Shown in pieces: positions 27,884 to 45,489 of a stretch of 64,000 bases of DNA (positions are counted from its first letter, which is position 1; every line of letters starts with the position of its first letter). A program made the translations under genes and the position numbers. The stretch is from sequence record OR786310.1; one strand, written 5' to 3'. Source of the DNA: Escherichia phage ETEC-TG. Below the pieces are notes generated by a model that saw only the letters and a program-made list of their open reading frames with translations, ran no database searches and was not told the DNA's origin.

Positions 27884-30037
27884 ATGAAACAAGCTATATT
27901 TACTGTCACGCGAGACAAGAGAGTAAATGCGAGTTCATTTAACTACACGACTGTTGACGGAACAGCAGTCGCTGGTAGAGATTATATTGCAAAATCGGGA
28001 ACACTTGTGTTCCCTGATGATGCTGATTCTGCTACTATTGTGGTTGAAGTATTTGAACGACCAAAGAACTCAATAGATCTTAACTTCTCCCTCCAAGTTT
28101 CAGGGATTAGTCAAAATAACATGATGGTTGAAACAACCATCAATTGTATTATAACTACTATCCAAGAAAATACTACTCCAATAACTTGGACTACAAAAGA
28201 CGTTAAAATGTTCTCTCCTATGTATTGGACAATAGATTCTCAAGCAACGGAAAGTTGTTCTATTGTATCTCATGGAGACTCTTTTACTGCAAGATTTGTA
28301 AACAGAACAACAGCAGGTTTGGCAGGGGTTATCTGGAGCACAGTTGACAAATATGACCATAAAGGTGTTGGGTATTTGCCTCACACAGATTTAAGTTCAG
28401 AGAAACTTTGGTTTAAAATGGAAATTAGTCAAAACATGCCAGGTTTTAAAGAAGAACCTTTGGTGCCGACTTTGACTGTAACTCTCCTGGATAAAAGTGT
28501 TCATTATGTCAGTTTAGGATTCTACGCTTCAGATATTTCAGAAGATGGTAAAACAGCCACAATAAAGTTAGATTTTGGTAATATCTTTTCTGGCCCTAAT
28601 AATGATATTCCTTTGGATATGAGTGCTGTAGATAATATTTTCTTCTCTTTGATTACAGCAAGGTATGAAAAAATAGAAGAGGTTGTACCTATTGACAGTC
28701 AAGAGGCTTGGTTTACTTTCACTCTTCTTGAACCTACTTCTGGTTACAGTATGATGAAAGTCAGCAACCTTGTCCAGCCTGAACATGATATTCGCATGTG
28801 CACATCTTATGATGATATGTATAACCTGACTCCAGAGAGAGTTATTTATAATACATATGCACTAGGTTATCGTGGAATGATTAACCATTACAACGGAATG
28901 TCTCACTATTATGAGTTCTCATGGAACGGAACATCTTGGGCTTTAAATAGATCTGTTTTCCTGAATCCGGCTACAGAAGCTTGGCTAAATAGTTTCCATT
29001 CTATAGCAAACGAGAAGGGCTACACGATAATGAACTCTTTAAGTTTTGAATTGATGAGCACAGTTTGTCCTGTAGAATGGGTCCAGCATGATTGGAACGA
29101 TGCTCTTGCAGCAACAGGGTATGAACCTCCTAGTTATGTGTTGTCTCCAACTATTGACGAAGGTATGGAATATTTGCAAAATGTTATTAACAAAATAGCA
29201 TCTATTTCGCAAGCTAATAATATTCCAGTTGTCATTCAAATTGGTGAGCCTTGGTGGTGGTATAATACAGCAAGTAAAATGCCTTGCATATATGATTACA
29301 CTACCAAACTGGCATTCAACACAGAAACAGGCTTATTTGCACAAGATGCAGGAACAATAGATAATTATAAAACAGGAACACCGTTTGACGAATACTATGC
29401 ATTTTTGTCTCGTAAACTAGGGTTAAGAGTTACAAAGTTTGCAACAGACACTAGAGCAACTTATCCAGGAGCTAAAGTAACATTGCTGCCATTCTTACCA
29501 TCAATTATCGGCAATGGTTTAATGGAGAAAGTTAACTTTCCGTCTGATTACTACATTCCTGAAGCTTTTGATTTTTATTGTTCAGAGTGTTACGACTGGC
29601 TTCTGGAAGGTAAAATGATGAAAGCATTTGATGCAATTACCATACCACATGAAAAATTAGGTTTTGAATATTCTGATATTCACTATCTTGCAGGTTTTGT
29701 TCCAGATGCTACTCTTGCACCTTTGTATGGCTTTGATCCTGAATCAAACTACCGCACGTATCTTTGGAAAATGATTATAGGTAACATAGTGTTGAACGCC
29801 AATAAGTTCAATGGACTTACACAATATATATGGGCCTATCCTCAAATAATGCACGATTCTATCACGGTAGTTAATTCTCAATCCCAAGTTTTCTATATGG
29901 GTAACGTGCCTTTGAACGCTTATTTACAGGATATCACTCTTAAACAGGTAAATGTTGAGATTGCCACCATAAGTGGAATTACATTAGCCACTAAATCTGG
30001 AGAAGATTTAGTAACAACACAAAAATTTTATATATAG
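27884..30037 (+). CDS. tail-associated protein with N-terminal Calx-beta-like domain
   Basis: N-terminus NYTTVDGTAVAGRDYIAKSGTLVF matches Calx-beta signature by eye. Confidence 0.4.
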   Translation: MKQAIFTVTRDKRVNASSFNYTTVDGTAVAGRDYIAKSGTLVFPDDADSATIVVEVFERPKNSIDLNFSLQVSGISQNNMMVETTINCIITTIQENTTPITWTTKDVKMFSPMYWTIDSQATESCSIVSHGDSFTARFVNRTTAGLAGVIWSTVDKYDHKGVGYLPHTDLSSEKLWFKMEISQNMPGFKEEPLVPTLTVTLLDKSVHYVSLGFYASDISEDGKTATIKLDFGNIFSGPNNDIPLDMSAVDNIFFSLITARYEKIEEVVPIDSQEAWFTFTLLEPTSGYSMMKVSNLVQPEHDIRMCTSYDDMYNLTPERVIYNTYALGYRGMINHYNGMSHYYEFSWNGTSWALNRSVFLNPATEAWLNSFHSIANEKGYTIMNSLSFELMSTVCPVEWVQHDWNDALAATGYEPPSYVLSPTIDEGMEYLQNVINKIASISQANNIPVVIQIGEPWWWYNTASKMPCIYDYTTKLAFNTETGLFAQDAGTIDNYKTGTPFDEYYAFLSRKLGLRVTKFATDTRATYPGAKVTLLPFLPSIIGNGLMEKVNFPSDYYIPEAFDFYCSECYDWLLEGKMMKAFDAITIPHEKLGFEYSDIHYLAGFVPDATLAPLYGFDPESNYRTYLWKMIIGNIVLNANKFNGLTQYIWAYPQIMHDSITVVNSQSQVFYMGNVPLNAYLQDITLKQVNVEIATISGITLATKSGEDLVTTQKFYI

Positions 30038-30045
30038 GAGTAAAA

Positions 30046-32298
30046 ATGTCAACTACAATTACTAATTTACCCGAAACATCAAAAGTTAATGGTTCTGATT
30101 ACCTGGTTTTAGACCAACCTGATAAGACTGTTAAAAGCACAGTTTCCAACTTTCTTACTGACACTGGGGTGGTTTTAGCCACCCAGTTGAAAGATACAGA
30201 TGGAGCTACCAAGTATCCAGAACTTCAGATTGCACGCTGGCGAGACGAGGGAGATATCAGAGGGTGGGGCACGGAAACAAACGGTGATGTTACCGAAGCA
30301 ATCATTGAGGCGGTAGCGGCGACAAGCGGCACTATCATTGTGCCACCTGGTGACTATGTTGCCACACCTACGCTGGCCGAAGTTCCGGCTGTGCTGAAAT
30401 TGCTGTCCCGCGCTGATTTTCGTGGCAGGTTGACCATTAATCTGCCAGCTGGGACGGTCAATCTGAACGAGCAGACAGTCATAAATTCTAACAGGAGTAA
30501 TCTGTGCAAGGTCATTGGCGTAGCGCTAAACACGAGCGTTACAGGGCTTGTTTCTGTAGCTGGGTCAAGCAAGCAATATTCGATAACTCTGTCCCTGGCA
30601 GATGCCTCGCAGGTGTCAGTCGGTGACTATGCCATCTTCAGGCACGATCTGACGGGAACTGGTTTTTTCCACATACACTGCGGGGGCTGGCGGGTAACGG
30701 CTGTGTCCGGCAATAACGTGACCGTGCTCAACACATGCGTCTTGGATTCATTCCCTTCGTCAACCGTTACCGGTGGATCAGTCTCCATTATCAAGTCCGT
30801 TCTGAAATACACCGGCTGTGATGGGATTAGACCGGAGGGCGGCGACTGTATCGGAATTATTGATAATGTCGCCATCGTGGGTGATTACAACCTTGCTACC
30901 GGCGCAGGGACAATCGGTGCTCACGGCGTAATATCCTCAACACCCGTAGTAGTCACCGACGCCGCCAACGCATCCAACAACGTAGCGAATATGGCGGCAG
31001 CGCTGGCCCTGGGACGAAATATTGCAATCAGTGCCTGGGGTGAGCAAGGGCTGGCAGTGTCGGGTCGCTCTGCGCTTGTGTGTAACTTCATCGCATCCTG
31101 TGCCAACCGTAAGCGTGGTATTTATGCGGAAGGTGCTCATATACGCGGGAAATTTATGATCGCCTCCGGAAACGGAGAGGACGGCATTATTTCAGATACC
31201 ACTGGATTTGTGCAGGCTGCATATGCCGTTTGCTCGGGTAACGGATTAAACGGGTTCTGGTCAACAAACCTCTCTCTTATTGCGGCGGCAAGGGGAGTGG
31301 CTTGCTGTAACAAAACAAATGGTGTGGAGGCAAGGGGGCAGACAAGGCTCGCATTTGATCTCGGCCTTTCCTACGGAAACGTTCTAAACGGTGTCAGCGC
31401 CTCTGATGGGGGCATGATTGACTTTGATGGCGGCATGTCAAGAGACAATCTCGTTGACGGGATCGCAGCGACATACAATGCAGTAGTTGACGCGAACAAC
31501 GCCTCCAGTACCACCAATGGTCGTTACGGTACTAACGTGACCTCCGCGTGCATTATCATTTCAGGGACTGGTACTATATCTGGGAATACAGGGGCGGATG
31601 TTCGTGATAACGGCAATGGGATGGTTGTCCGACCAGACGGCACGATCTACCCATTCACTGGGGTCGCACAGGGTAATCTGTCGCTAAGAAACACCGTCAG
31701 CGGCGCGGGGGTTGACATTGTTCCTACAAGTATAGGTGACTTAATTCTGAGCTTTAAAAACTCAGCAGGCGGAACGCTTAACCCGTTATACAACTTCAAA
31801 GCCGACGGTACTCAGTACCCTCAAAATGACGCGACGCAAAGCCTTGGGCGTGCCGCTAACCGATACAATGTCGGTTTCTTCGCTGGCGGAACACAGTCAA
31901 CTTCAGATGCCACACTTAAAGACCCTATCCGGGAGTTCAATCAGGCCGAACTTAATGCAGCAATGCGAATCGCAAAAATGCTGGGTTTCTGGACATGGCT
32001 GGATGATGCCGGAAAACGGCTTCATGCAGGGACAACAGTGCAAGCGGTACTGGAGGTGCTGGAAGAAGAGGGACTCGACTGGCGTAACTATGGTTTCATC
32101 GGATTTGATGAGTGGGATGATGAATATATCCCAGTAACCATTGAGGTAGATGGCGAAGTCGTTGAAACAGGGGAAACGAAATTAGTGCGTGAGGCTGGTT
32201 CTGTCTGGCAACTGCGCGATCAGGAATTTGACCGTTTCGTTATGCGTGGACTTTCTGAAAGGCTGAGTATTATAGAAAGTAAGCTGGATTTACTGTAA
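30046..32298 (+). CDS. tailspike / receptor-binding protein with C-terminal intramolecular chaperone domain
   Basis: Gly/Asn/Val-rich beta-helix-like repeats; STSDATLKDPIREF (S620-D621) resembles the S74 chaperone autocleavage motif; body is GC-rich relative to the genome. Confidence 0.5.
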   Translation: MSTTITNLPETSKVNGSDYLVLDQPDKTVKSTVSNFLTDTGVVLATQLKDTDGATKYPELQIARWRDEGDIRGWGTETNGDVTEAIIEAVAATSGTIIVPPGDYVATPTLAEVPAVLKLLSRADFRGRLTINLPAGTVNLNEQTVINSNRSNLCKVIGVALNTSVTGLVSVAGSSKQYSITLSLADASQVSVGDYAIFRHDLTGTGFFHIHCGGWRVTAVSGNNVTVLNTCVLDSFPSSTVTGGSVSIIKSVLKYTGCDGIRPEGGDCIGIIDNVAIVGDYNLATGAGTIGAHGVISSTPVVVTDAANASNNVANMAAALALGRNIAISAWGEQGLAVSGRSALVCNFIASCANRKRGIYAEGAHIRGKFMIASGNGEDGIISDTTGFVQAAYAVCSGNGLNGFWSTNLSLIAAARGVACCNKTNGVEARGQTRLAFDLGLSYGNVLNGVSASDGGMIDFDGGMSRDNLVDGIAATYNAVVDANNASSTTNGRYGTNVTSACIIISGTGTISGNTGADVRDNGNGMVVRPDGTIYPFTGVAQGNLSLRNTVSGAGVDIVPTSIGDLILSFKNSAGGTLNPLYNFKADGTQYPQNDATQSLGRAANRYNVGFFAGGTQSTSDATLKDPIREFNQAELNAAMRIAKMLGFWTWLDDAGKRLHAGTTVQAVLEVLEEEGLDWRNYGFIGFDEWDDEYIPVTIEVDGEVVETGETKLVREAGSVWQLRDQEFDRFVMRGLSERLSIIESKLDLL

Positions 32299-32364
32299 TT
32301 AAGAGCCGCTATCTCCTACTATGATGGCGGCAACCTTAAAATATTTACGTGGGGGAGCCACCTA

Positions 32365-32607
32365 ATGAGAAAATTTTTAATAGGTATGTTTTGTACATAT
32401 CCTGATAATAAAGTCAGTTCTACGAAAGTCTGGAACGCTGTAGGTATGTCGGTTATGACAGGCATGTTTATCTTTTTAGGAATAGAAAAAGAAATTCCTG
32501 AATGGATGGGTTGGGCTTTTGTTTTCATGATAACTCCTTCTCGCCTCATGAAAAATCTTATTGATTTACGCTGGGGCAGATCACAATCTACCAAAGAGGA
32601 TGACTAA
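32365..32607 (+). CDS. small membrane protein, holin-like (two TM segments)
   Basis: 80 aa, two hydrophobic helices, charged C-terminus RWGRSQSTKEDD, GGGGGA RBS. Confidence 0.35.
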   Translation: MRKFLIGMFCTYPDNKVSSTKVWNAVGMSVMTGMFIFLGIEKEIPEWMGWAFVFMITPSRLMKNLIDLRWGRSQSTKEDD

Positions 32608-34094
32608 TGGACGAATATGGTTTGACAGATGCGGGATTTGTAATCCCGACTTTTGACGATGTTTTAAACAACTACATGACAGCAGTAAAAAACACATTTG
32701 GTGCAGATGCAGCCACTTCGGAAGATACTGTGATCGGACAACTGTTTAGAATAATTGCATACACAGATTACACATTGTGGGAAGGTATGCAAGGTGTTTA
32801 TAATACTCAAACACTAGATGGTGCAGAAGGTATTTATCTTGACGAAATCTTTTCTAAACGCGGTTTCTATCGAGCAGGGGCAGCAGCAAGTACAGGGTAT
32901 GCCTATGTTAAGAGTAATAACAAAGCAGCTTGGACTTATGAGTTAGGCACAGATATTTACTTCAACTCTGATAGTGATATGAACTACTATGTTAGCACAC
33001 CAACTATGTTGAATGCTAAGATTGCAGCTTATCAAATCTCCCGTGCTAATGCAACAGCTACAGGTGTTCCAAATATTACTTTTTATGCACAAAGTGCGGT
33101 AGATGGAGGATTAAACAGTAAAACACTTGCACCTGGTTCTTCTACATTTATAACCGATCTTGAAACTTTTATCAAGGCGAATTTAACAGAAGCTGATCGT
33201 AGTCTTGTATTTTCTGATTCAGGTAACTTGTCAATTGGTTTTACTTCTTTAACCAGTGATACTCCAGTGGGACTAGTAACTCCTATCAAATTTTATGCCA
33301 GTGTTCCAGTTGGAACCAAATGGAGTGAAATTCCAGTAGTTGCAGCAGAGAAAGGATACAATCCTGTTGGTGTGGAGTCTATTACAGGGATATCTTCTAC
33401 CTTTACAGGTTATCTTGACAGTGGTAACTTTTATTCGTTTTCTCCTGGTCGGGATGTTGAGACAGACGCAGAATTCCGCTCTCGTTTCAATGACAACGTT
33501 GATGAAGCTAACGCAGGGACACGAGCAGCTATTGTGAAAGCTCTGTTACTTACAGATGGTGTCACTAAGGTGAAGATTTATGATAACCCTACGTTACATG
33601 ATCAAGAACACGCTCCGGCTATGACTTTCCAGACTATAGTGTATGGTGGCAGTGCAGAAGAAATTGCAAATGTTATCTATAAAACCAAACCAATCAACAC
33701 TTTGACACACGGAACAACTAACATAACAGTTACAACAGAAGATGGAGGACAAGAAATTATTCGCTTCTCTCCTGGTGCTTCTGCTATGTATTCCGTAAAA
33801 CTTGTTTATCAAACTGTCAACGGAACAACTTTAAGTGGAACAGAAAAACAAAACATCGTAGAAGCTTTACAAAACCTGCAAGCTTACTTTGAGTTAGGTT
33901 CTTCAGTAACAAACGATCAAATCAAAGGTGTTATTTATGCAGCACTTGCTTTTGGACGCTTGACTTCTCTTCGTGTTTATGTTAAACTTAATACTGAGGA
34001 TGACAGTAAATATACAGAGAATAATATAGTTCCTGCTTATAATGTTGTCCCTTCTTTTGACCTTGATAACATTTCTTACGAGTATGGAGTGTAA
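32607..34094 (+). CDS. baseplate J-like protein (putative)
   Basis: 495 aa, position, stop/start coupling. Confidence 0.4.
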   Translation: MDEYGLTDAGFVIPTFDDVLNNYMTAVKNTFGADAATSEDTVIGQLFRIIAYTDYTLWEGMQGVYNTQTLDGAEGIYLDEIFSKRGFYRAGAAASTGYAYVKSNNKAAWTYELGTDIYFNSDSDMNYYVSTPTMLNAKIAAYQISRANATATGVPNITFYAQSAVDGGLNSKTLAPGSSTFITDLETFIKANLTEADRSLVFSDSGNLSIGFTSLTSDTPVGLVTPIKFYASVPVGTKWSEIPVVAAEKGYNPVGVESITGISSTFTGYLDSGNFYSFSPGRDVETDAEFRSRFNDNVDEANAGTRAAIVKALLLTDGVTKVKIYDNPTLHDQEHAPAMTFQTIVYGGSAEEIANVIYKTKPINTLTHGTTNITVTTEDGGQEIIRFSPGASAMYSVKLVYQTVNGTTLSGTEKQNIVEALQNLQAYFELGSSVTNDQIKGVIYAALAFGRLTSLRVYVKLNTEDDSKYTENNIVPAYNVVPSFDLDNISYEYGV

Positions 34095-35797: not shown

Positions 35798-36343
35798 ATG
35801 ATATTTACAAACTTTAAAAAATATATTCCTGAAGACCCTGAACTAAAAGAATTGGTAGAAGCAGAGAACATTCTTTTTCTTCGTTGCGATCAAGGTTACG
35901 ATTGGTATGATTTACGTAGCACAGAATTCAATAACGATAAAATGAAAGTCGTTTTTGATGATCAAAATCGTATTGTGTTTTGGAATACTGATCCTACACT
36001 ACTTTGCCCTGAAGATCTTTCTATAGCACAAGTAGATTTTAATATAGATACTTTTGAGGATATTAGGAACAAGGTTCTGGATTTAGAAACCTTAACTCTT
36101 AAGGATAAAGAGTATTCCCGTGAAGAGTTGATGACACAAGCTAGTGCAAAAATTCGCTCTTTACAAGAAACAGCGGTAGCACTTATAACACCTTTACAGT
36201 ATGCTAAAGATTTAGAAATGGCTACTGAAGACGAATTAGCTTATCTTAAAAATCTTCAAGTTTATGTAGTTAAACTAAATCGTGTTCCGCTTCAAAAAGA
36301 CTATCCTTACGCTATAGATTGGCCTACATTACCGACAGAATAA
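35798..36343 (+). CDS. tail fibre assembly protein (putative)
   Basis: 181 aa immediately downstream of fibre gene. Confidence 0.35.
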   Translation: MIFTNFKKYIPEDPELKELVEAENILFLRCDQGYDWYDLRSTEFNNDKMKVVFDDQNRIVFWNTDPTLLCPEDLSIAQVDFNIDTFEDIRNKVLDLETLTLKDKEYSREELMTQASAKIRSLQETAVALITPLQYAKDLEMATEDELAYLKNLQVYVVKLNRVPLQKDYPYAIDWPTLPTE

Positions 36344-36352
36344 GGGATCACT

Positions 36353-36688
36353 ATGGAATTTCAAGAAGCATGGGGACTTGCAAAGGATGCAATAATCCCT
36401 TTAATCGGAGTCATCTGGTTCTTTTTCAAACAAAAAATGGATAAATTCGGCTCTGATCTTGAGGAAATGGAGGAGAAAAGTCGAGAGCTAGAGAAGAAGT
36501 TGGTCTTTGTTGAATCAACTTACGCAACTAAAGCCGAACTTACCCAGATGCTAAATCAAATTAACTCTACATTAATGGCAAATAACAACACCCTTGAGCA
36601 AAAAATTGAAAAGATTATGGACCTCAAGAATGCGACTATCCAAATGATGCTAGATGACATAGTTAAACGTACACAGAATAAGGGGTAA
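36353..36688 (+). CDS. membrane-anchored coiled-coil protein
   Basis: N-terminal hydrophobic helix IIPLIGVIWFFF then coiled-coil. Confidence 0.3.
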   Translation: MEFQEAWGLAKDAIIPLIGVIWFFFKQKMDKFGSDLEEMEEKSRELEKKLVFVESTYATKAELTQMLNQINSTLMANNNTLEQKIEKIMDLKNATIQMMLDDIVKRTQNKG

Positions 36689-36691
36689 TTA

Positions 36692-39600
36692 ATGGCAACA
36701 TTCCCAACATATCCAGCAACGTCTCTCGAACAGGGCGTAGACCTGGTTATTTTCTCATCTAACCAACTCCATGATGTTATTAATGGAAGTGCTACAGAGA
36801 GTATTGAAACAGAATCAGGGTTGATACCAACCCTGAGAAAAGCCCTTGTTGACAACTTTTTCTTTAAAAGCCCATTGGATTGGGCGCAAGGCACAAACGA
36901 AACAGTTTTTAACCAACTTCGTTATTTCCAGAATGGAGTATTGAGCGGTTATTACTATGCTCCTAACGCTACATTGGTTAACCCAATCCCTATGCAAGGG
37001 ACTCCAGTAGGAGATAACAACTGGGTATTGTGGGGACTGAAAACAGAACAATTAGCAACAGAAGTCACCCCGTGGGTATACTCTGGTGCAACTGGTTATG
37101 AAACAGTAATTAGTCCTCCTTACATCTTTGATAGTGCTATTGTTACGATCAATGGTGTTATTCAGGTTCTGGGGGAAGCTTTCCGTATAGAAGACAGTAA
37201 GATCATCTTATCTGAACCTTTGGGACACGATCCTGCAACAGGACTGCCAAACAAGCTTTTTGCTTATATTGGTAAAATCGTAGCTTCAGCAGATACAGAT
37301 CCTAATCTAGAGAACCGTCTTGTTAGTTTAGAAACAAAAACGGAAGAACTAACAGAAAGCATGGATAAAGTCCCTCTGCAAGCTATTGCTCGTAAGTATG
37401 GTTTGTTAGATGATGAGGTGGCTTACGCAACAGCAGGTCAATCGTTAACAGGGATTAAAGCTCTGTATGATCCGGTAGCACAGTCTTCCTACACATTACC
37501 TCCTAACATCACAGGAACTTTAACATCCTTATCTGTTTCTGGAGTAATGACTTATTCTGGAGGATCTGTAGACCTTTCTGCACTGGCTGTTGAGCGTGGA
37601 CAGTTTGTTCATTTGCCTACAAGCTTTGGTAATAACGTAACTCTGACAGCTAAAAATCAGACGATTGGACGTGGTGCTGGTCGTTATCGTTGGGCTGGAA
37701 GTTTACCAAAAAGTATTTTGGCCTCTGATACATTGGAGACAAGCGGAGGATTAGGTCCAAATGCATGGGTTCTGACTAATACAGAAGGACTGTTAACCCC
37801 TCGTGGTGGAACATACAACGATCTATTCGATGTTGTCTACTTGTCAGAATTTGCTAACAATACAACTACCTATACCACACCAGAAGCAGCTTTCCAGGCG
37901 GCACTGTTAGCAGCAAAAGCTTCGAAAAGCAAGATTCTCGATGCTTACGGTTGCGACATGACTTTCACGACAAGCTCTTTTGATATTCAAGATATCACTT
38001 TGCGTGGTGGTGTGTTCCGTGGTCAACGCGACTATCGTGTGCAGAATGCTACAGTAGAAGGCACAACTTTCCGTAACTCTCGTGTTATGTATTGGGGTGG
38101 TGCTGTGCGCATGTTCGATTGTTTGTGGGACGGTGCTCCTCGCGCAGGTCAAGTTGGTAGCTTGGTATTCCAAGGCAACCCAATATCAGGTACTTTTGAA
38201 ATTGATAATTGTACTTTTAAAAACGGGTTATATGGCATTCTTCAACAAGGAACAGGGGAACCAGTAACACGCGGTGTCTTCCGTAACCTTACCTTCATGG
38301 ACATGCAAGGTGATGCAATAGAACTGAACGTCATCAATAAACATTATGACGATGGTTGTGTGATTGAGAATATTTACCTGTCTAATATCGATGGGACTAA
38401 CGCTCCTATTCCTCTGTCCAACTGGGGTATCGGTATCGGTGTAGCTGGTAAAGGACCATATGGTTACGGAATCCCTGATGATCAATATTGTAAGAACATT
38501 ACAATTCGTAACGTTTTTGCAAAACGTTGTCGTCAGATTGTCCACGTAGAAGTTGGTCGTAATATCTCTATCGAAAACATTCATGGCGATCCAGATCAAA
38601 CCGTATCTGTTGGGACAGGTTTGGCAACTGGCGCAGTTGTAATGTATGGAAGTAAAGACTTTACGATTGATGGTGTTTATGGAGAGCCTAAAACAGACGG
38701 TAGCACACTTGCAAGTAATATCCGTATGATTTACTTGGAGTGGGGAACTAACGCAGTTCTGGATGAAGAGGGTAATCCGGTAGTTCCGGCACAAGGCAGA
38801 CCTTCAAACCCATGCTTTAACTATTCTGTTCGTAACATTCACACCAAAACTGGGCGTGTTTTTGCGGGAGTTTCCGCTGGGCCAGGTTATGAAAACAGAG
38901 TTAGCTTTGAAAATATTCGTTGCGCTGCCTTGCAGTTGTTCGGTATAGCTTCTTGGCTTTCAATGTCTAACATCACCTGTAATATCTTCGATTGTGTTGG
39001 TCAACCTGAATCTGGTCCAGGGACATTTTATGATGGATTCTTCCGTAGAGAAAAATCTGTTCTTGAAATGGTTAACGTAAACTGTTACCCAGATGGCAAG
39101 ACGATGGTTACTGGTCGTCCACAGTGGAGCCGTTGCCGTTACTCGGATATTCATCGTGTCAACTGTAATGTTGAAGCTAATATGTATACCAATATCGCAG
39201 GTGGTATTGGAGCTATTGTAGGGACAACGGGCAAAGTTTATTACTTAGAGCCTAATCCTAGTCGAAACATTGATGGAATGCATTTCCCAACAGGGAAAGA
39301 GTTTGACAAAGGGGATATGATAGTCAAGGCGGATAATACGTTCTTCCTTGTAACAACAAGTGGGGCATATATTCCAGATATCCCAGCTTTCGGTATTCGA
39401 GCTACACAGGCAGGAGATACCTTCCTGACACAGAACTTGACTCCTAACGGGACAGCAACAAATGCTTCTTGGTTGTATCATTACCCTCTGTCAGCAGGGA
39501 CACGTATCCGTATTCCTGGCGCTGGTGTAGGTGGAGCAGATTTGGACACAGTTATTACTCGTGCACCTTATCAAGATAATGATACGTGGACTAACCCAGT

Positions 39601-39745
39601 TAAAATAGACATTGCAGATCCAATTGTAACGCCTACAAGTGCTGGAGTTAGAATTAAAACCATACCTAATGATTCCAGTAATGTTTCTGTAGGTAATACT
39701 GCGGTTATTCGCCCAACGCCAGTAGTAGATGTGCCAACAACCTAA
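36692..39745 (+). CDS. tailspike / tail fibre protein (large)
   Basis: 1017 aa, beta-helix-like composition in the tail fibre region. Confidence 0.45.
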   Translation: MATFPTYPATSLEQGVDLVIFSSNQLHDVINGSATESIETESGLIPTLRKALVDNFFFKSPLDWAQGTNETVFNQLRYFQNGVLSGYYYAPNATLVNPIPMQGTPVGDNNWVLWGLKTEQLATEVTPWVYSGATGYETVISPPYIFDSAIVTINGVIQVLGEAFRIEDSKIILSEPLGHDPATGLPNKLFAYIGKIVASADTDPNLENRLVSLETKTEELTESMDKVPLQAIARKYGLLDDEVAYATAGQSLTGIKALYDPVAQSSYTLPPNITGTLTSLSVSGVMTYSGGSVDLSALAVERGQFVHLPTSFGNNVTLTAKNQTIGRGAGRYRWAGSLPKSILASDTLETSGGLGPNAWVLTNTEGLLTPRGGTYNDLFDVVYLSEFANNTTTYTTPEAAFQAALLAAKASKSKILDAYGCDMTFTTSSFDIQDITLRGGVFRGQRDYRVQNATVEGTTFRNSRVMYWGGAVRMFDCLWDGAPRAGQVGSLVFQGNPISGTFEIDNCTFKNGLYGILQQGTGEPVTRGVFRNLTFMDMQGDAIELNVINKHYDDGCVIENIYLSNIDGTNAPIPLSNWGIGIGVAGKGPYGYGIPDDQYCKNITIRNVFAKRCRQIVHVEVGRNISIENIHGDPDQTVSVGTGLATGAVVMYGSKDFTIDGVYGEPKTDGSTLASNIRMIYLEWGTNAVLDEEGNPVVPAQGRPSNPCFNYSVRNIHTKTGRVFAGVSAGPGYENRVSFENIRCAALQLFGIASWLSMSNITCNIFDCVGQPESGPGTFYDGFFRREKSVLEMVNVNCYPDGKTMVTGRPQWSRCRYSDIHRVNCNVEANMYTNIAGGIGAIVGTTGKVYYLEPNPSRNIDGMHFPTGKEFDKGDMIVKADNTFFLVTTSGAYIPDIPAFGIRATQAGDTFLTQNLTPNGTATNASWLYHYPLSAGTRIRIPGAGVGGADLDTVITRAPYQDNDTWTNPVKIDIADPIVTPTSAGVRIKTIPNDSSNVSVGNTAVIRPTPVVDVPTT

Positions 39746-39806
39746 TGGAATAGAGGGGGATTCCCCCTCTTCTTCCAATAGAATGGTCTAATGATAGGAG
39801 AGATAA

Positions 39807-41831
39807 ATGAATTTAACAAGACCTAATAGTGCGATAGCCGATCTGGTAGAAGCTACTTATCGAAAACGTCGCAGCTTTGAGGCAGGTTTTACATTACGTA
39901 ATTCCCGTGAAGTTTTGCTGTTAGCAGCAGAAGGGAATTATTACCAATGGAAAGGAACTTTTCCTAAAGTTGTTCCAGCAAACTCTACGCCAGCCACCAC
40001 AGGTGGTATTTCTTCCCTTGCATGGCAAAGTGTTGGGACTGCTGATGATATAGCAATTATCAATGCCAAGTTTACGGCAATGCAGCAACAGATTGATGAT
40101 CTGTCGGAAACAATACCTGAAGCTGGTAAATCGGCTTATCAGATCGCACTTGATAATGGTTTTGTTGGAACAGAAGCACAATGGCTTGCTTCTTTGAAAG
40201 GGGATACTGGTGCTCAACTTAATATTAAAGGATCATTAGCAAACACTAGTGAACTACCATCCACAGGTAACGTTGCAGGGGATGGTTATATCGTAGGTGA
40301 TGTAATCTACGCTTGGGATGGTTCTGTTTGGAAACTTATTTCTTCTCTTGGGCCAGAAGGTAAATCAGCTTACGAGGTATGGTTGGCAGATGGTAATACA
40401 GGATCTGTTTATGATTTTCTTACCTCTATAAAAGGTGATAAAGGTGATGTTGGTCCTACAGGGCCACAGGGAGCACCTGGTGTTAACGCCAACGGTTTTG
40501 ATTATCGTGGGGATTTGCCTTCTACAAGTAACTTACCACAACCAAACTCTGAAAACGTAAGTCAAGCTTATTCTATCAATGGTAATCTTTATGTCTCTAA
40601 TGGGACAGCTTGGGTCAACATGGGTAATATTGTTGGTCCTCAAGGTCCACAAGGTGAGGCAGGTAAAGACGGTCTTGATGGAACAGATGGAGATGAAGGG
40701 AAATCTGCATATCAAAGTTGGCTGGATGCTGGTAATGAAGGGACAGAAGTAGATTTTATTGCCTCACTTAAAGGTCCAAAAGGAGACAAAGGTGATCAAG
40801 GAGAGCGAGGTCCACAAGGTGAACTAGGTCCACAAGGACCAGTGGGTGCAACAGGATCAGGCTTAGATATTATCGGGGTTCTGAACAGTGAAGCTGAACT
40901 TCCTCCTACCGGAGAAGTAGGTGATGCATATAAAATTAATAATGATTTATATGTTTGGGTTCAAGATGCTACGGAATGGATGAATGTTGGCAGTCTTGGA
41001 GGAACATCAATTACAGCTAAAGGTCATGTTCCGAACAGTGAAGCTCTCCCTGTTTATAATAACTATGGCGATGCCTACTTAACTGAAGACACTAGTAATC
41101 TTTACATCTATACCTACGATCAAGACACCAATTCCGCATCTTTTGTTGACATGGGAAGTATTAAAGGCGACAAAGGTGAAAAAGGGGATAAAGGAGATAA
41201 GGGTGATCCTGGAACAAACGGAACCAACGGTACTGATGGGACCAACGGTAAGGACGGCGCACAGTGGTTTGTAGCAACAACTAATCCAGTTGCAGGAGAC
41301 GGTGTTATCAATGATTACGCCTTCAATACTACCACTGGAGCAGTGTTTAAGAAAACAGATTCTTCTACGTGGACGCTTATAGGCACTCTTCCTAGTATAC
41401 CAGAAGCCCCTCAAGACGGCTTGACGTATGGTCGGTCTGATGGAAACTGGATCGAAATATCAGGATCAGATCCTACGGAAGCTATAACACCAACTAGAGT
41501 TACAGCAGGTTTCATGGAACTTGAAACAACTGCTGCCAACTCTGGAGCATCTTGGACTCCTTCTGGAACTTCCAATATGTATGTTGTTACAGTAACTGAT
41601 GCTCTGACAGTTGGAGCATGGCCTGGTGTCACTGGCTCTACAAAACCTAAAGCGTTTTCAGCAATGATTTATTTGATTCAAGATACAACGGGACACACGG
41701 TTACACTAGATGCGTCTTATGGAGCACTAAATGATACAGAAATAGCAACTGCTGCTAACGCAGTAACAATTTTGCAATTAACGTATCCTGGTGTGGGTGA
41801 TATCGTGGACATGGTTGTTGTAACACGATAA
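39807..41831 (+). CDS. tail fibre protein with collagen-like and phage-fibre repeats
   Basis: G-x-x runs (GDKGEKGDKGDKGDPGTNGTNGTDGTNGKDG); three copies of GKSAYxxWLxxGxxGTExxxxxSLKG. Confidence 0.6.
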   Translation: MNLTRPNSAIADLVEATYRKRRSFEAGFTLRNSREVLLLAAEGNYYQWKGTFPKVVPANSTPATTGGISSLAWQSVGTADDIAIINAKFTAMQQQIDDLSETIPEAGKSAYQIALDNGFVGTEAQWLASLKGDTGAQLNIKGSLANTSELPSTGNVAGDGYIVGDVIYAWDGSVWKLISSLGPEGKSAYEVWLADGNTGSVYDFLTSIKGDKGDVGPTGPQGAPGVNANGFDYRGDLPSTSNLPQPNSENVSQAYSINGNLYVSNGTAWVNMGNIVGPQGPQGEAGKDGLDGTDGDEGKSAYQSWLDAGNEGTEVDFIASLKGPKGDKGDQGERGPQGELGPQGPVGATGSGLDIIGVLNSEAELPPTGEVGDAYKINNDLYVWVQDATEWMNVGSLGGTSITAKGHVPNSEALPVYNNYGDAYLTEDTSNLYIYTYDQDTNSASFVDMGSIKGDKGEKGDKGDKGDPGTNGTNGTDGTNGKDGAQWFVATTNPVAGDGVINDYAFNTTTGAVFKKTDSSTWTLIGTLPSIPEAPQDGLTYGRSDGNWIEISGSDPTEAITPTRVTAGFMELETTAANSGASWTPSGTSNMYVVTVTDALTVGAWPGVTGSTKPKAFSAMIYLIQDTTGHTVTLDASYGALNDTEIATAANAVTILQLTYPGVGDIVDMVVVTR

Positions 41832-41835
41832 CAGA

Positions 41836-41859
41836 AGCCCCGAAAGGGGCTTTCTTTTT
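41836..41859 (+). terminator. Rho-independent terminator (GNRA tetraloop)
   Basis: GCCCC-gaaa-GGGGC followed by TTTCTTTTT. Confidence 0.65.
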
Positions 41860-41872
41860 ATGGAGGGTTTAA

Positions 41873-44545
41873 ATGTTTCCAATTCCAATATTTACTATTA
41901 TGACCAGCACTGGTGTCGTTCCTCTGCCAGCGGGTATTGTTAAAAAAGTAATCACTTTAGATTACCCAGATAATGCTGGTAATTCTAACAGCAGTTTAGC
42001 AATTTTGCTTAATGATGGTAGATTGTTTACTCAAGGCGCAAACCTTTTTGGTGAGATTGCAGATGGAACTCGTAGTGCACGATTCAATAATTTCCACTTA
42101 GCTTCTACTGTAGTAGCGGATGTGTTTACCGCAGATCGTTGTTTTGTTATTAAAACTAACAGCGGGGGATGGCAATATTCAGGATTGACAGCAGGGTTGG
42201 TAGGATCTATAGCAGCAGGTGGTACGGATGCATGTGTAACTACTTGGACCAGCTTTCCATCTGTAATAACAGGGACTATCTCTTTAGCCAATCTTAAAGA
42301 GGTTAAAGGAGGGTATAACAATACTCTTTGGTTAATGAATAGCGGTGTTCTTTATGGATCGGGTCAAAACACAGTAGGCAGTTTAGGTGCAAGCACTACT
42401 AACGAAGTTTCTACTCCCCGTCAGATAACAAGTTCAGCAGTTGCTTTTGATGCAGGTTATAACCAATGCTCTTATGTCAACAATGCGGGAACCTTGCGTG
42501 TTTGTGGAGCTAGTAAAGGTTTAGCAGGTAATAATAACACAACAACCGCTTTTGTCAATGCCACGATATCCACTACTGAAACAGTGTATGTCAAAGATTA
42601 CATCAATACAGTTTCCCAGACAATAGTTGTAGGAGATACCTCCGGTGGCGCGGGTACAGTAAACTACTTATATGTTAGATCTAATACAGAAACAACCTAC
42701 ACTAAACTGGACACCTTTGCAGCAGGTTTCTCAACATGGAAATTTCCACCAAGCCGCCACTCTTTTTTCGTTGGGATCAATAATTCCTTGTGGGCTATTG
42801 GTAAGAACTACACTGCAAACTTAGGTTTGGGATATGATTCTGCGAGCGGAGATCCACTCCAAGTGGGAAAACCAGTTAAACCTGAAGGAGTGGGTTCCTG
42901 GGATATAAACAAGCTCACAAGCGTTCATACGTTGAATATGGATATTACTAACCAATTAGGTTATCAAGGAACCTTTTTCGTTTATAACGGGGATATGTAT
43001 TATTCCGGTATTTGGAAAGATGGGAAAGCCTCGTATCTGTTCAATAGTGGTCTAAACTATAATAAATTCACACCAATAGCAAGCTCCGTGATTACGGGGG
43101 ATGTTCTGGCAACTGGCTTAACTACAGATTCTTTAGGAATTTGTATTGTAGGTGGAACTAAACAGTTGACACATTCTGTTAGCCCGGAAGGAGGTAAACT
43201 TTTCAATATTAAATACACTTCTTCTGTCCCTGCAAACATGACAATATCATCTACTGGTTTAATGACTTTCCATGCAGAAGGTGGTTTTGATGCAGGTATG
43301 ACAGCCTTAAACGCTGAAGGAACAACTTTATCAGATACCTCTGGAGGATATGCTTCAACATTGAGTGTTTACACCCCTAGCTTATCTGCGATGGATGTAG
43401 GAACAACACAAACAATGGTAGCAGAAATAACGCCAACAGGAGCAGCAAGCTTACCTGGTATGGTTGTTGAGTATACAACTACAGATCCTAATGTTGCTAC
43501 AGTAGATCCTACAACTGGTGTAATAACTGGTGTTGGTGATGGTGGTTGTAGAATTGGTTGCACAGCTACATATCAAGGTGTTGTTACCGCTTCTGATAGT
43601 TCTTATTTAACGGTGAACGCTGTTGCGGGAAAGGAGTTAGCTCCATCTCCGAGTAGTAGTTTAACGGTTCTAAACGGATATTTCAACCACTCGGCAGATG
43701 GGGCAATTACGTTCCCAATTTTATCGGGTACTGTCACACCAGCTAACTTTGTAGTTAAGGTGGATGACGTTGTAATACCTTCAAATAAAGTAATATTTAG
43801 AAATAAAGCTTTCTCTACAGTGGATAGTTATCCAGCAGGAGAATATAGACTGGCTATTGAATTTGCAAGTGCTTCAGTAGTGAATAGTGTTGATGTGTCT
43901 ATGGAAGCAAATCCAGATCTTTTAGAATTATGGGGCGGCAACAGAATTGGTTATTCTACAAGCCCAGCCTCACAATTCTTAAAAGGTTGTGCTAACTTAA
44001 GACGAATAACTTCTGATTGTTTTAGTAACACATCTTACACCGGAACATCTATAAGTGGTATCTTCTCTGGCTGTACAAGTTTGACAGCTATCCCTGAAGG
44101 ATTATTCAGTGATGCTTTATTTCCTTCAATGACAACAATGTCAAGCACGTTTGAAGGTTGTACATCTTTAACATCTATTCCTTCAGATTTATTTAAAAAT
44201 CTATCAAAAGTTACAAGATATTCTTACACCTTTAAAGATTGCACCTCTCTTGCAGAAGTTCCAGCAGGAATGTTTGATAATATTCCAACGAAAGTGACCT
44301 CTTTAACAGCTACATTCCAAGGTTGTTTAGCACTTACAGATTTTAATAAAATCTTTAATGACAACCCAGGGTTAACTGTTTGTGGTAAACGTGGAGCATT
44401 ATCTTCTTTCTTTAGTGGATGCACAAATCTTACAGGAACAGGAACAACATTAACAAATACATTAGGCGGAGTAGCTAATAGTTACCTATTCAGGTATTGC
44501 ACAAAACTTTCTGATTATAACAATATTCCTTCGGGTTATAAATAA
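41873..44545 (+). CDS. tail fibre/adhesin-like protein with C-terminal BspA-type leucine-rich repeats
   Basis: Seven approx 24-aa repeats F-x-G-C-T-S-L-T-x-I-P in the last approx 190 aa. Confidence 0.5.
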   Translation: MFPIPIFTIMTSTGVVPLPAGIVKKVITLDYPDNAGNSNSSLAILLNDGRLFTQGANLFGEIADGTRSARFNNFHLASTVVADVFTADRCFVIKTNSGGWQYSGLTAGLVGSIAAGGTDACVTTWTSFPSVITGTISLANLKEVKGGYNNTLWLMNSGVLYGSGQNTVGSLGASTTNEVSTPRQITSSAVAFDAGYNQCSYVNNAGTLRVCGASKGLAGNNNTTTAFVNATISTTETVYVKDYINTVSQTIVVGDTSGGAGTVNYLYVRSNTETTYTKLDTFAAGFSTWKFPPSRHSFFVGINNSLWAIGKNYTANLGLGYDSASGDPLQVGKPVKPEGVGSWDINKLTSVHTLNMDITNQLGYQGTFFVYNGDMYYSGIWKDGKASYLFNSGLNYNKFTPIASSVITGDVLATGLTTDSLGICIVGGTKQLTHSVSPEGGKLFNIKYTSSVPANMTISSTGLMTFHAEGGFDAGMTALNAEGTTLSDTSGGYASTLSVYTPSLSAMDVGTTQTMVAEITPTGAASLPGMVVEYTTTDPNVATVDPTTGVITGVGDGGCRIGCTATYQGVVTASDSSYLTVNAVAGKELAPSPSSSLTVLNGYFNHSADGAITFPILSGTVTPANFVVKVDDVVIPSNKVIFRNKAFSTVDSYPAGEYRLAIEFASASVVNSVDVSMEANPDLLELWGGNRIGYSTSPASQFLKGCANLRRITSDCFSNTSYTGTSISGIFSGCTSLTAIPEGLFSDALFPSMTTMSSTFEGCTSLTSIPSDLFKNLSKVTRYSYTFKDCTSLAEVPAGMFDNIPTKVTSLTATFQGCLALTDFNKIFNDNPGLTVCGKRGALSSFFSGCTNLTGTGTTLTNTLGGVANSYLFRYCTKLSDYNNIPSGYK

Positions 44546-44578
44546 GAAAAGGAGCCATTTGGCTCCTTTCTTTTATAA
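44546..44578. terminator. bidirectional terminator between convergent late and replication operons
   Basis: AAAAGGAGCC-attt-GGCTCCTTTCTTTT with A-run upstream and T-run downstream. Confidence 0.65.
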
Positions 44579-44601
44579 AAACTCTTTATAGATCAATAAG
44601 A

Positions 44602-45489
44602 TCAGAATGGAATATCATCATCGAAGTCCATTGGAGGTTCTTCTTGATTACTTGGAGTTGGTTCTGGTTGTGGTTCAGGTTTTTTAACTTCTTTCTTCTC
44701 TTCTTTCTTAGGTTGTTCTGCGGAACCACGAATGGCAGCAGCAACTTTATCAGACAAAGCTAGAACTTTACGAGCAGAGTCAATCAAATCTTCTACAGAT
44801 ACAGTCTTAATGGTATGGTCTTTACAAGCATTGAGGATAGCGTGACCAACAGATGCCCCAAGATCATAATCATTAATGTCAACGCCACGAGATTCAGCAA
44901 TTTCCGATTTCAGCGTGACAGTTGCAGATTGAACAACCCCAGCGATATCGAAAGCATCACCTTTAACACCATTACGAATCAGTTCCAGTGCACCATTTAC
45001 TGCGTGACCAGTTTCCAGACCTACAGTATCACGTTTTTTATAGGACTGCTTAGGAGCAGCATCGTTGGAACCTTTATTGCCAGAAGATTTGTTAGACTTC
45101 TGAACACCATCGGTAGACAATACTGTAATACGAGATTTTTTAGTATTGTAGTAAGTTTTACCGCCTTTATTATCAACGCGATCAATATCAATACTTACTT
45201 CTACACCTTTTTCAATAGTGATCCAATTATCACCTTCTTTGACTTGCAGGTTTTCATAACCTTCTTTCAGTTCAATGTCACCAAGAGAAATCCAAACACC
45301 TTTCTCATCTGGTTTAGCACCTTTCTCTTTCAGAACAAGAGAAGCTCGGTGAGTTGAAACAATCGTTTTTCCTTCCCAATGAAAAGTTTTAGGTTCAGCG
45401 AATTTATCCAGTTTAACGTAGTCTACGATACCAGTTGCATAAGTTACGGTTTTGCCTTTACGATCAGTTTCAGTATTAATTACGGACAT
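44602..45489 (-). CDS. SSB-like protein with host-type C-terminal tip
   Basis: C-terminus ...PPMDFDDDIPF matches the E. coli SSB tail; heads the replication block; N-terminal body not recognisably bacterial SSB. Confidence 0.55.
   Translation of the reverse strand: MSVINTETDRKGKTVTYATGIVDYVKLDKFAEPKTFHWEGKTIVSTHRASLVLKEKGAKPDEKGVWISLGDIELKEGYENLQVKEGDNWITIEKGVEVSIDIDRVDNKGGKTYYNTKKSRITVLSTDGVQKSNKSSGNKGSNDAAPKQSYKKRDTVGLETGHAVNGALELIRNGVKGDAFDIAGVVQSATVTLKSEIAESRGVDINDYDLGASVGHAILNACKDHTIKTVSVEDLIDSARKVLALSDKVAAAIRGSAEQPKKEEKKEVKKPEPQPEPTPSNQEEPPMDFDDDIPF

Follow-up and report, generated by a model that had tools for sequence, protein, structure and literature searches.

A modular tailspike gene in Escherichia phage ETEC-TG with a native anchor, a probably prophage-derived beta-helix body and a predicted self-cleaving S74 chaperone

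Introduction

Modular exchange of tailspikes that retain a conserved anchor and an S74 chaperone was reportedly described by Schwarzer in 2012. The principle is by now established (Pas 2023, PMC10408124), so that a further instance is confirmatory rather than surprising. In the phAPEC8/phi92 group of phages, the gp143 (endosialidase) slot is the sole hypervariable receptor-binding slot. One occupant, the endosialidase endoN92 (gp143 of phi92, gp095 of phAPEC8), has a GH58 sialidase beta-propeller as its body; the phi92 precursor is annotated as proteolytically matured, and the gene has a backbone-like GC content of 0.38. The same slot holds the receptor-binding protein of VEcB (Justusliebigvirus; YP_009987349.1), of which the Phapecoctavirus 536P1 carries a near-identical copy. 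The S74 chaperone (MEROPS S74) is also found in T5 pb1 (PDB 4uw8) and K1F endoNF (3gw6), where it is attached to other receptor-binding domains: pb1 has a bullet-shaped lectin domain, endoNF a sialidase. Autocleavage of pb1 involves a catalytic serine and a lysine five residues further on, with an aspartate, an arginine and a threonine forming the oxyanion hole (PMC4690869).

Here we describe a gene in a 64,000-nt stretch of Escherichia phage ETEC-TG (OR786310.1; hereafter the window). We consider it very likely that the gene encodes a modular trimeric tailspike in which the lineage's own anchor is joined to an imported beta-helix body from the prophage pool and to a self-cleaving S74 chaperone, the import having taken place in at least two steps.

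A receptor-binding gene in the gp143 slot

The ORF list gives a 750-aa product for the gene at 30046–32298 (Table 1). An exact look-up matched the protein to WPK30732.1 of phage ETEC-TG, an identical sequence that carries the GenBank label 'hypothetical protein' and to which a function can now be given. A literature search found no paper on phage ETEC-TG or on PDB entry 9vvr. The phage of the window is a Phapecoctavirus, a virulent, phAPEC8/phi92-like myovirus. As judged by synteny with phi92, VEcB and phAPEC8, the gene lies between a gp142-like gene for a non-contractile-sheath protein and genes for a membrane protein and baseplate J, and in the phi92 annotation the same AGGAG precedes gp143. 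Both this position and the conserved N-terminal anchor identify the product as the receptor-binding protein of the Stephanstirmvirinae gp143 slot. The flanks are 95–99% identical to many Phapecoctavirus genomes, and the middle is covered by no record: 29000–33500 is covered by 0 of 128 related records, and the other fibre genes, at 36000–45000, by 66 of 71.

Table 1. Coordinates of the tailspike gene, its parts and neighbouring features in the window
Feature	Position	Strand	Description and basis
Ribosome-binding site AGGAG	30036..30040	+	5 nt before ATG, overlapping the stop codon of the gene upstream; read from sequence
Tailspike precursor gene	30046..32298	+	750 aa; positional homologue of phi92 gp143 and phAPEC8 gp095; ORF list, synteny with phi92, phAPEC8 and VEcB
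N-terminal anchor core, aa 1–56	30046..30213	+	AT-rich backbone, common to all occupants of the slot
GC-rich island	30158..32225	.	GC 0.52–0.53 vs 0.36–0.39 in flanks; maximum-likelihood change points, sliding profile, GC3
Linker and second junction, aa 57–77 (ATKYPELQIARWRDEGDIRGW)	30214..30276	+	Common to endosialidase-type and some other bodies
Receptor-binding body, aa 78–534	30277..31647	+	Cap, inserted beta domain, right-handed parallel beta-helix
Most recently exchanged tract (approximate)	30335..32120	+	Prophage-like allele between ends common to 536P1 and VEcB
C-terminal stem before cleavage site, aa 535–619	31648..31902	+	Alignment to T5 pb1 4uw8
Peptidase_S74 intramolecular chaperone domain, aa 620–750	31903..32295	+	PF13884, PDB and Foldseek matches
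Hairpin (GCCGCUAUC, 9-nt loop, GAUGGCGGC)	32305..32331	+	Directly 3' of stop codon, in 66-nt spacer

A kilobase-scale GC island begins within the conserved N-terminus

The GC content of the gene is 0.52 compared with 0.39 (0.397 across the whole window), and it forms the only kilobase-scale GC island within the 64 kb. In a 200-bp profile, GC rises from 0.32–0.37 (29500–30200) to 0.50–0.59 (30200–32100) and falls to 0.37–0.40 past 32300. Outside the island, 200-bp windows have a mean GC of 0.393 (sd 0.038, maximum 0.505), compared with a mean of 0.519 inside; the island holds all four of the most GC-rich 1-kb windows, and the next in rank has 0.452. The GC3 of the gene is 0.497 (0.533 in the body), whereas all other real genes of 150 aa or more range from 0.21 to 0.41. 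Composition is thus far from uniform, and the sharp rise to ∼50–55% GC over ∼2 kb that the initial annotation had judged by eye is borne out by both the sliding-window and the codon-usage analysis.

The same annotation took the first ∼65 codons to share the AT-rich composition of the genome. The start of the gene is indeed low in GC (0.333 over aa 1–37), but the rise begins near codon 38, and homology to the backbone breaks at codons 75–81 rather than at 65. Residues 38–75 still belong to the backbone, being 95% identical to phAPEC8 and having high GC1 and GC2 in every relative, as is also the case for the linker (aa 57–77). Long spurious antisense ORFs at 30354–31140 had likewise been ascribed to the GC shift. 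They exist at these coordinates, but the four ORFs in the island are 61–82 aa long at 1.9 per kb, compared with 1.3 per kb in the rest of the window, and 18 ORFs that reach or exceed 82 aa lie outside it; with no greater length or density than elsewhere, they were rejected as a signal.

A shared anchor joined to many bodies at two junctions

The anchor is 96–100% identical in dozens of relatives and, at a threshold of 80% identity, is present in 47 proteins. In 34 of these, the resemblance to the window protein ends at aa 55–57; in another 11 proteins, endosialidases among them, it extends to aa 76–78. In other phages, the same anchor carries 38 or more types of body, with two discrete points of junction. 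The linker peptide recurs in the solved tailspike 9vvr_A, and an AlphaFold model has low confidence over aa 1–56. At the nucleotide level, backbone homology stops at 30269 and resumes at 32365; for phAPEC8 (95%) it stops at 30269 and is taken up again at 32370. The true break lies at 30269–30286. With endoN92, the window protein shares the N-terminal 77–99 aa at 76–79% identity. Residues 1–77 would accordingly be read as the lineage's own baseplate anchor and linker, and the points at aa 56/57, at aa 77 and within the chaperone offer in-frame swap points for engineering.

The body resembles prophage tailspikes

The closest relatives of the body are tailspikes of temperate elements that reside in the chromosome of E. 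coli, unlike the virulent phage of the window. A lambdoid prophage tailspike (P0001, with a TSP1/Gp66-type N-terminus) is 87% identical in nucleotide sequence, with a GC content of 0.51, and body and chaperone together are 93% identical in amino acid sequence; for a P22-like prophage tailspike (P0002) the latter value is 82%, and both prophage relatives have a GC content of 0.50–0.51. Their N-terminal adaptors are wholly different from that of the window protein and suited to siphovirus or podovirus tails, and some P22-like prophage tailspikes carry the head-binding domain PF09008. Further relatives occur in a Sashavirus (virulent-type), in phages VEcB and 536P1, and in Citrobacter and Leclercia. 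With flanks typical of Phapecoctavirus, a body close to prophage tailspikes and an anchor that is found with many other bodies, the earlier proposal that a receptor-binding module was acquired horizontally and joined to a native N-terminus is well supported. Atypical composition and codon usage, 87–98% nucleotide identity to prophage genes and the mapped breakpoints (30269–30286, ∼30335, ∼32120 and 32365) together argue for horizontal acquisition of this gene segment, and the sequence past about codon 77 would have been imported from the tailspike pool of E. coli temperate phages (GC ∼0.5).

A two-layer history of import

Compared to the VEcB protein (749 aa), the window protein (750 aa) has the same slot, anchor, linker, beta-helix family and S74 chaperone, and the two are 70% identical overall. 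Considering that a subtype such as X7 comprises proteins with an amino acid identity of 30% or more to its representative across at least 60% of the receptor-binding domain (PMC10408124), this full-length identity to YP_009987349.1 assigns the window protein to RBP subtype X7 (VEcB-type). Identity to VEcB and 536P1 is unevenly distributed, however. The first ∼300 nt, the last 165 nt and the downstream spacer are 97–99% identical, whereas the centre (∼30335–32120) is a different, prophage-like allele. Identity to 536P1 is 96.7% over 30046–30340, 56% over 30345–31780, 80% over 31781–32120 and 99.4% over 32134–32298, while prophage L007 is 89% identical over 30345–31780 and 93–98% in many 60-nt windows. 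The value of only 56% over the central 1.4 kb marks a different allele, presumably with a different glycan specificity, and the GC content of the body is 0.517 compared with 0.47 in VEcB and 536P1.

These data support a two-layer history, in which an allele appears to have been replaced within a gene that already belonged to this tailspike family. In a first step, a member of the family would have entered the gp143 slot, giving the state common to VEcB and 536P1; later, homologous recombination with crossovers near 30335 and 32120 would have exchanged the centre for a different prophage-like allele. Since 31440–32100 is only 74–88% identical to any relative, the true donor is unsampled. None of 5,426 complete E. 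coli RefSeq genomes carries the window allele, the best match being 66–69% identical in nucleotide sequence over part of the region; the sister allele was found in prophages of O6:H16 ETEC genomes. It is possible, though we would rate it at rather less than an even chance, that the central allele confers a glycan specificity new among characterised tailspikes, for example for an ETEC O-serogroup other than the O6 of the sister allele, and that it came from recombination between a virulent 150-kb myovirus and a resident prophage in an infected lysogen. Rather than at the DNA motifs that have been proposed for lytic genera at the anchor end, the crossovers fall within the first ∼20 codons of the receptor-binding domain and within the S74 chaperone. 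If this placement is general, the chaperone and the beta-helix cap would be universal recombination handles joining the temperate and virulent gene pools.

A stem and an S74 chaperone with a predicted cleavage site

The initial annotation had predicted a C-terminal intramolecular chaperone of the S74 type, and several lines of evidence agree with this. PF13884 matches the C-terminal part (aa 620–677 of 750) with 35.4 bits, above the gathering score of 22 (E 1.3e-8). Sequence matches in the PDB are 4uw8 (2.4e-25), 7y5s, 6eu4 and 3gud, and Foldseek returned 4uw8 (E 9e-11) and the endoNF chaperone 3gw6 (E 5e-6). The AlphaFold model has helices at 633–643, 665–674 and 725–749 and hairpins at 685–723. 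These elements correspond to the chaperone fold, with its helical core, its beta-hairpin 'tentacle' and its coiled-coil helix at the C-terminus.

The window protein keeps the whole set of five residues that have been implicated in the autocleavage of pb1, and shares both the fold and the Asp/Arg/Thr/Ser/Lys set with pb1 and endoNF. The stem residues D595 (31828–31830), R606 (31861–31863) and T619 (31900–31902), together with S620 and K625, align with pb1 D1239, R1250, T1263, S1264(A) and K1269. S620 (31903–31905) is the predicted nucleophile and K625 (31918–31920) the predicted general base. Moreover, the annotated maturation site of phi92 gp143 (...GTINT|SDGTLK) aligns with ...GTQST|SDATLK of the window protein. 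EndoN92 and the window protein thus appear to follow a common principle, release of a C-terminal S74 chaperone at ...T|SD..TLK, although their chaperones are only ∼32% identical. The predicted scissile bond is T619|S620, giving products of 619 and 131 aa, with the serine leaving with the chaperone. The S-D pair at 31903–31908, noted at the outset as resembling the S74 cleavage motif, is correctly located in that S620-D621 opens the Pfam match, but the cut is expected at T619|S620 and not between S and D.

The chaperone (620–750), which follows the putative stem at 535–619, would drive trimer folding and then remove itself by the Ser620/Lys625-catalysed cut, in which case the virion would carry a 619-aa protein. 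By analogy with the phi92 homologue, and given the S74 chaperone, this protein is likely to be a virion-attached homotrimer, the structure model itself being that of a monomer.

Function and target of the beta-helix

The modelled central domain is a right-handed parallel beta-helix, as expected of a tailspike, with 23-residue rungs and a repeated N-G turn. The body matched no Pfam or NCBIfam family. An identity as an endosialidase (GH58) was rejected, as the Pfam search gave no endosialidase domains (PF12217/12218/12219/12195); likeness to the phAPEC8 and phi92 endosialidases is confined to aa 1–99 and the chaperone, and the beta-propeller of endoN92 has no detectable similarity to the beta-helix body. 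The fold neighbours are a mixture of hydrolases, lyases, epimerases and non-enzymatic adhesins; since the fold is generic, deriving an enzymatic mechanism from them was abandoned. From fold and context, the beta-helix (78–534) would bind and probably cleave a host surface polysaccharide, acting as a 'depolymerase'.

The substrate is probably O-antigen, most likely that of an enterotoxigenic or related E. coli serogroup. Resistance to 536_P1, the carrier of the sister allele, maps to LPS genes, and LPS is the receptor for this related phage (PMC11495123). Prophage relatives of the VEcB homologue occur in O6, O11 and O153 strains (PMC10408124). Pas et al. gave the VEcB-type subtype X7 no serogroup and raised the possibility that multi-serogroup subtypes target a non-O-antigen, the K-antigen among them (PMC10408124). 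A beta-helix of the same architecture and origin might thus be directed against a capsular (K) antigen or another exopolysaccharide, possibly as a lyase; the classic occupant of the gp143 slot is a capsule depolymerase (endosialidase), strong fold neighbours of the body include K1 capsule lyases and alginate epimerases/lyases, and a basic cluster (R355, K356, R357, Y360, R367 and K369) is almost invariant across the family. We nevertheless regard such a target as somewhat unlikely, as the nearest relatives are single tailspikes of P22-like and lambdoid E. coli prophages, a class that tracks the host O-antigen (PMC10408124), and the K15 capsule of strain 536 hides the receptor of 536_P1 instead of being that receptor, the resistance mutations lying in LPS genes (PMC11495123).

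A non-enzymatic fibre or spike that only binds is quite unlikely. The helix carries invariant acidic and basic residues (D194, D280, E333, D379, D384 and the RKR cluster), to which no role can be assigned but which are conserved in relatives of 30–90% identity, and the best full-length neighbours are enzymatic tailspikes. This gene is the likeliest determinant of the serotype-specific host range of the phage, which bears on the choice and engineering of therapeutic phages against ETEC.

Direction of transfer

The module documents gene flow between E. coli prophages and a large virulent myovirus, which probably ran from the former to the latter. Transfer from virulent phages to prophages, or from a common third pool as the source of the high GC, would fit with the unsampled donor and with the occurrence of the family in a virulent-type Sashavirus and in Citrobacter and Leclercia. 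We consider it improbable, however, as the GC and GC3 of the module fit E. coli and its prophages (0.49–0.51), unlike the myovirus backbone (0.39), and as gp143-slot alleles in related myoviruses range in GC from 0.37 to 0.52, as expected of imports of differing age undergoing amelioration. That the GC shift arose without transfer, as a composition effect of a Gly/Ala-rich beta-helix or as an assembly chimera, is effectively refuted by the jump in GC3 (∼0.3 to 0.53) and the nucleotide homology to prophage genes, even though the left edge at aa 38–75 is a genuine composition effect; furthermore, the junctions keep the reading frame and coincide with those of many other phages, and the 750-aa architecture recurs in assemblies of independent origin (one contig from NCBI and two from Logan), with the 749-aa version in VEcB and 536P1.

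The downstream spacer

The 66-nt spacer behind the gene is 98.5% identical to 536P1 and unrelated to phAPEC8, and appears to have been inherited with the 536P1/VEcB-type 3' end of the gene. A scan for consensus terminators found nothing, and promoter matches were at chance level. The hairpin in the spacer has a predicted RNA fold of −23.8 kcal/mol (z = −3.3) and may act as a weak terminator or as a motif for recombination.

A modular tailspike in a hypervariable slot

The ORF at 30046–32298, confirmed in the ORF list, encodes a 750-aa protein identical to WPK30732.1 (Escherichia phage ETEC-TG), annotated only as 'hypothetical protein'. We conclude that it is a textbook modular tailspike, in which an anchor specific to the lineage is combined with a beta-helix receptor-binding domain that was exchanged horizontally and with an S74 intramolecular chaperone. 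It occupies the known hypervariable slot of phi92/phAPEC8-like phages. The overall interpretation in the initial annotation is supported, with minor corrections. The gene order (gp142-like protein, tailspike, small membrane protein, baseplate J, DUF2612 baseplate protein, tail fibre) is the same in phi92, VEcB and phAPEC8. The slot is filled in phi92 by gp143 and in phAPEC8 by gp095, an endosialidase made, according to its annotation, as a precursor that matures by proteolysis.

The flanks of 29000–33500 show 95–99% identity to many phAPEC8-like phages (Phapecoctavirus, subfamily Stephanstirmvirinae), and the middle is covered by none of the 128 matching records in an INPHARED-derived phage collection. 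The other tail-fibre genes (36000–45000) are covered by 66 of 71 records at 95–99.9% identity. They include three large fibre/spike genes that, unlike the gp143 slot, are 95–99.9% conserved in relatives; a colanic-acid-degrading protein is annotated in relatives somewhere in this 9-kb stretch. The gp142 homologue is likewise conserved across relatives and has a backbone-like GC of 0.366. Several fibres and spikes and a variable receptor-binding protein in this cluster have been published for these phages (PMC11984140; PMC10844046).

Features of the window and of related loci, and nucleotide identity between the window and phage 536P1
Feature	Position	Description
Major capsid protein gene	12594–13595	Phage_cap_E; GC 0.464, GC3 0.41
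gp142 homologue, 717 aa	27884–30037	Upstream of tailspike gene; N-terminal Calx-beta; N-terminal and TIM-barrel domains of 'non-contractile tail sheath protein'
Out-of-frame ORF, 103 aa	31826–32137	Sense strand, within chaperone-coding region
Hairpin, 9 bp	32305–32331	Directly 3' of tailspike stop codon
Fibre/spike gene, 1017 aa	within 36692–44545	Internal Tail_spike_N at aa 302–361
Fibre/spike gene, 674 aa	within 36692–44545	Tail_spike_N and collagen repeats
Fibre/spike gene, 890 aa	within 36692–44545	RCC1-like repeats and Big_2
Window vs 536P1	30046–30340	96.7%
Window vs 536P1	30345–31780	56%
Window vs 536P1	31781–32120	80%
Window vs 536P1	32134–32298	99.4%
Window vs 536P1	32299–32364	98.5% (downstream spacer)
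Tailspike gene, VEcB (Justusliebigvirus)	L002:3846–6095	
Tailspike gene, 536P1 (Phapecoctavirus)	L004:2846–5095	
102-aa ORF, other Phapecoctavirus loci	L010:3452–3760; L011:4085–4393; L013:3651–3959; L009:4388–4693	

The body is compositionally foreign and has prophage relatives

GC in 200-bp windows is 0.32–0.37 at 29500–30200, 0.50–0.59 at 30200–32100 and 0.37–0.40 past 32300, the overall value for the window being 0.397. Maximum likelihood places the change points at 30158 and 32225; 200-bp windows in the island between them average 0.519, compared with 0.393 outside (sd 0.038, maximum 0.505). The four 1-kb windows of highest GC in the 64 kb all lie in this island, and the best value elsewhere is 0.452. 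GC3 of the tailspike gene is 0.497 (0.533 for aa 76–619) and exceeds that of all other real genes of at least 150 aa (0.21–0.41), indicating that the shift is one of codon usage and not of amino-acid content alone. The profile, change points and GC3 bear out the sharp rise over ∼2 kb noted from the sequence by eye. The antisense ORFs then ascribed to it are all four present as described, but they are unremarkable (1.9/kb in the island versus 1.3/kb elsewhere); beyond the island, the window holds 18 ORFs of 82 aa or more. The 103-aa ORF is in all likelihood not a real gene but a consequence of high GC. The capsid gene, second in GC within the window, probably reflects expression-linked codon bias rather than transfer.

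At the left break, homology to phAPEC8 (95%) stops at 30269 and that to iGC_PHA_EC001 at 30206; at the right, backbone homology returns at 32365–32370, the start of the membrane-protein gene. The backbone anchor proposed as an AT-rich native N-terminus is present, but the GC rise precedes the true junction, because in all relatives the conserved linker (aa 38–75) has a high GC content at the first two codon positions. The phage-group anchor is carried by 47 of 134 retrieved proteins, with bodies in 38 unrelated clusters, and similarity to the window protein ends at aa 55–57 (n = 34) or aa 76–78 (n = 11, including endosialidases). These junctions agree with the phi92 gp143 anchor limit set at aa 80 by Pas et al. 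(PMC10408124).

Over 30286–32288, the gene is 87% identical (93% in aa) to the tailspike gene (GC 0.513) of a lambdoid siphovirus prophage, which lies 3' of tape-measure and GpJ-like genes and adjoins cadC/cadB in an E. coli chromosome. A P22-like prophage tailspike shares 82% aa identity, and 88–98% nt identity over 30361–30720. Remoter family members (59–70% aa) occur in P22-like prophages of O6:H16 ETEC genomes, in Sashavirus 536P12 and, within the same slot, in VEcB (Justusliebigvirus) and 536P1 (Phapecoctavirus). The body thus occurs with four or more unrelated N-terminal adaptors, which serve myovirus, siphovirus and podovirus tails. Composition, breakpoints and prophage homology together support a horizontally acquired receptor-binding module, much as first proposed.

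A probable two-layer mosaic history

For lytic genera including Justusliebigvirus, conserved junction motifs have already been proposed as recombination hot spots (PMC10408124). Specific here are the unusually fresh, E. coli-like composition of the gene, a direct tie to prophage alleles at 87–98% nt identity and crossovers within the receptor-binding domain and chaperone, not at the anchor. A history in two steps is the most economical. The tailspike family would have entered the slot earlier, giving the state common to VEcB and 536P1, and a later homologous exchange, with crossovers at ∼30331–30345 and 32104–32134, would have brought in another allele, one drawn from the pool of prophages. 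Over 30345–31780, identity to the lambdoid prophage allele is 89%, and 93–98% in many 60-nt windows. The exact donor is unsampled, since 31440–32100 is just 74–88% identical to anything retrieved.

GC of the slot body is 0.37–0.38 in endosialidases (GC3 0.23), 0.42–0.43 in Ro121c4YLVW, UP17 and Ec-G1, 0.46–0.475 in nieznany, iGC_PHA_EC001, 536P1 and VEcB, and 0.517 in the window gene, the highest of the occupants compared. This range fits repeated imports of differing age, the window allele being one of the least ameliorated. The VEcB and 536P1 tailspike genes are 98–100% identical over their whole length, whereas their backbones are far more diverged (flank identity to the window ∼81–86% and 92–95%, respectively), which points to a recent whole-gene transfer between genera.

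Predicted fold, maturation and receptor

An AlphaFold monomer model, built on 65 homologues, has a mean pLDDT of 85.4 (>90 over aa 80–530). Residues 1–76 are poorly defined, which is to be expected when a trimeric, baseplate-bound anchor is modelled as a single chain. A cap and an inserted beta domain precede a right-handed beta-helix with 23-residue rungs and a recurring N-G turn, followed by a C-terminal stem and a helical and hairpin domain closing in a long helix. No Pfam or NCBIfam family was found for the body; its family comprises 249 50%-identity clusters (E ≤0.001) among 1.84 billion representatives, and the members listed are mostly tailspike-sized, with an N-terminus of variable length. 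The model supports a putative polysaccharide-binding, depolymerising spike, hydrolase and lyase both being compatible with the fold.

PF13884 (Peptidase_S74) matches aa 620–677 above the gathering score and starts exactly at the S-D pair (S620-D621, 31903–31908) that had been taken as the start of the chaperone, an assignment that was essentially right. Residues 552–748 align to T5 pb1 (4uw8, E 2.4e-25) and other chaperone-bearing fibres, and Foldseek also retrieves the endoNF chaperone 3gw6. In pb1, the Thr1263-Ser1264 bond is cut, Ser1264 is activated by Lys1269, and the oxyanion hole is formed by Asp1239, Thr1263 and Arg1250 of a neighbouring chain, so that cleavage depends on a correctly assembled trimer (PMC4690869). 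All five residues are kept (D595, R606, T619, S620, K625), and the annotated phi92 gp143 maturation site (GTINT/SDGTLK) aligns with GTQST/SDATLK. On these grounds, cleavage is predicted between T619 and S620, which would leave a mature spike of 619 aa and release a chaperone of 131 aa.

The sister (VEcB/536P1-type) allele is found in O6:H16 ETEC genomes, within prophages, and in two phages that, by their names, point to strain 536, an O6:K15 strain. The window allele, being 70% identical to VEcB, probably recognises a different glycan from this O6-associated allele, and none of 5,426 complete E. coli genomes carries it. P22-like and related prophages have a single tailspike, which in general follows the O-antigen of the host; the VEcB protein has prophage relatives in O6 (89.8% aa), O11 (66.1%) and O153 (61.7%) strains, and Pas et al. 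gave its subtype, X7, no serogroup (PMC10408124). Mutations that confer resistance to 536_P1 lie in LPS core genes (waa cluster, galU, lpcA, rfaE), whereas K15 capsule overproduction merely masks its receptor (PMC11495123).

The downstream spacer

The hairpin after the tailspike gene (z = -3.3 versus shuffles), inherited along with the 536P1/VEcB-type 3' end, was not called by a consensus terminator scan; it may be the downstream 'motif three'/terminator of Pas et al. 2023. An extra 102-aa ORF (MNEMFSQGGKGSTGILTNKQAVARHFGVKQSEVVYF...) between slot gene and membrane-protein gene is absent from the window (32299–32364), 536P1, VEcB, phAPEC8 and phi92; in each case where an S74 chaperone closes the slot gene, the ORF is lacking. 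Many Phapecoctavirus genomes carry this ORF, annotated as a tail or tailspike protein (a note in one record cites the Salmonella phage Marshall tailspike), and it resembles a free-standing N-terminal stub.
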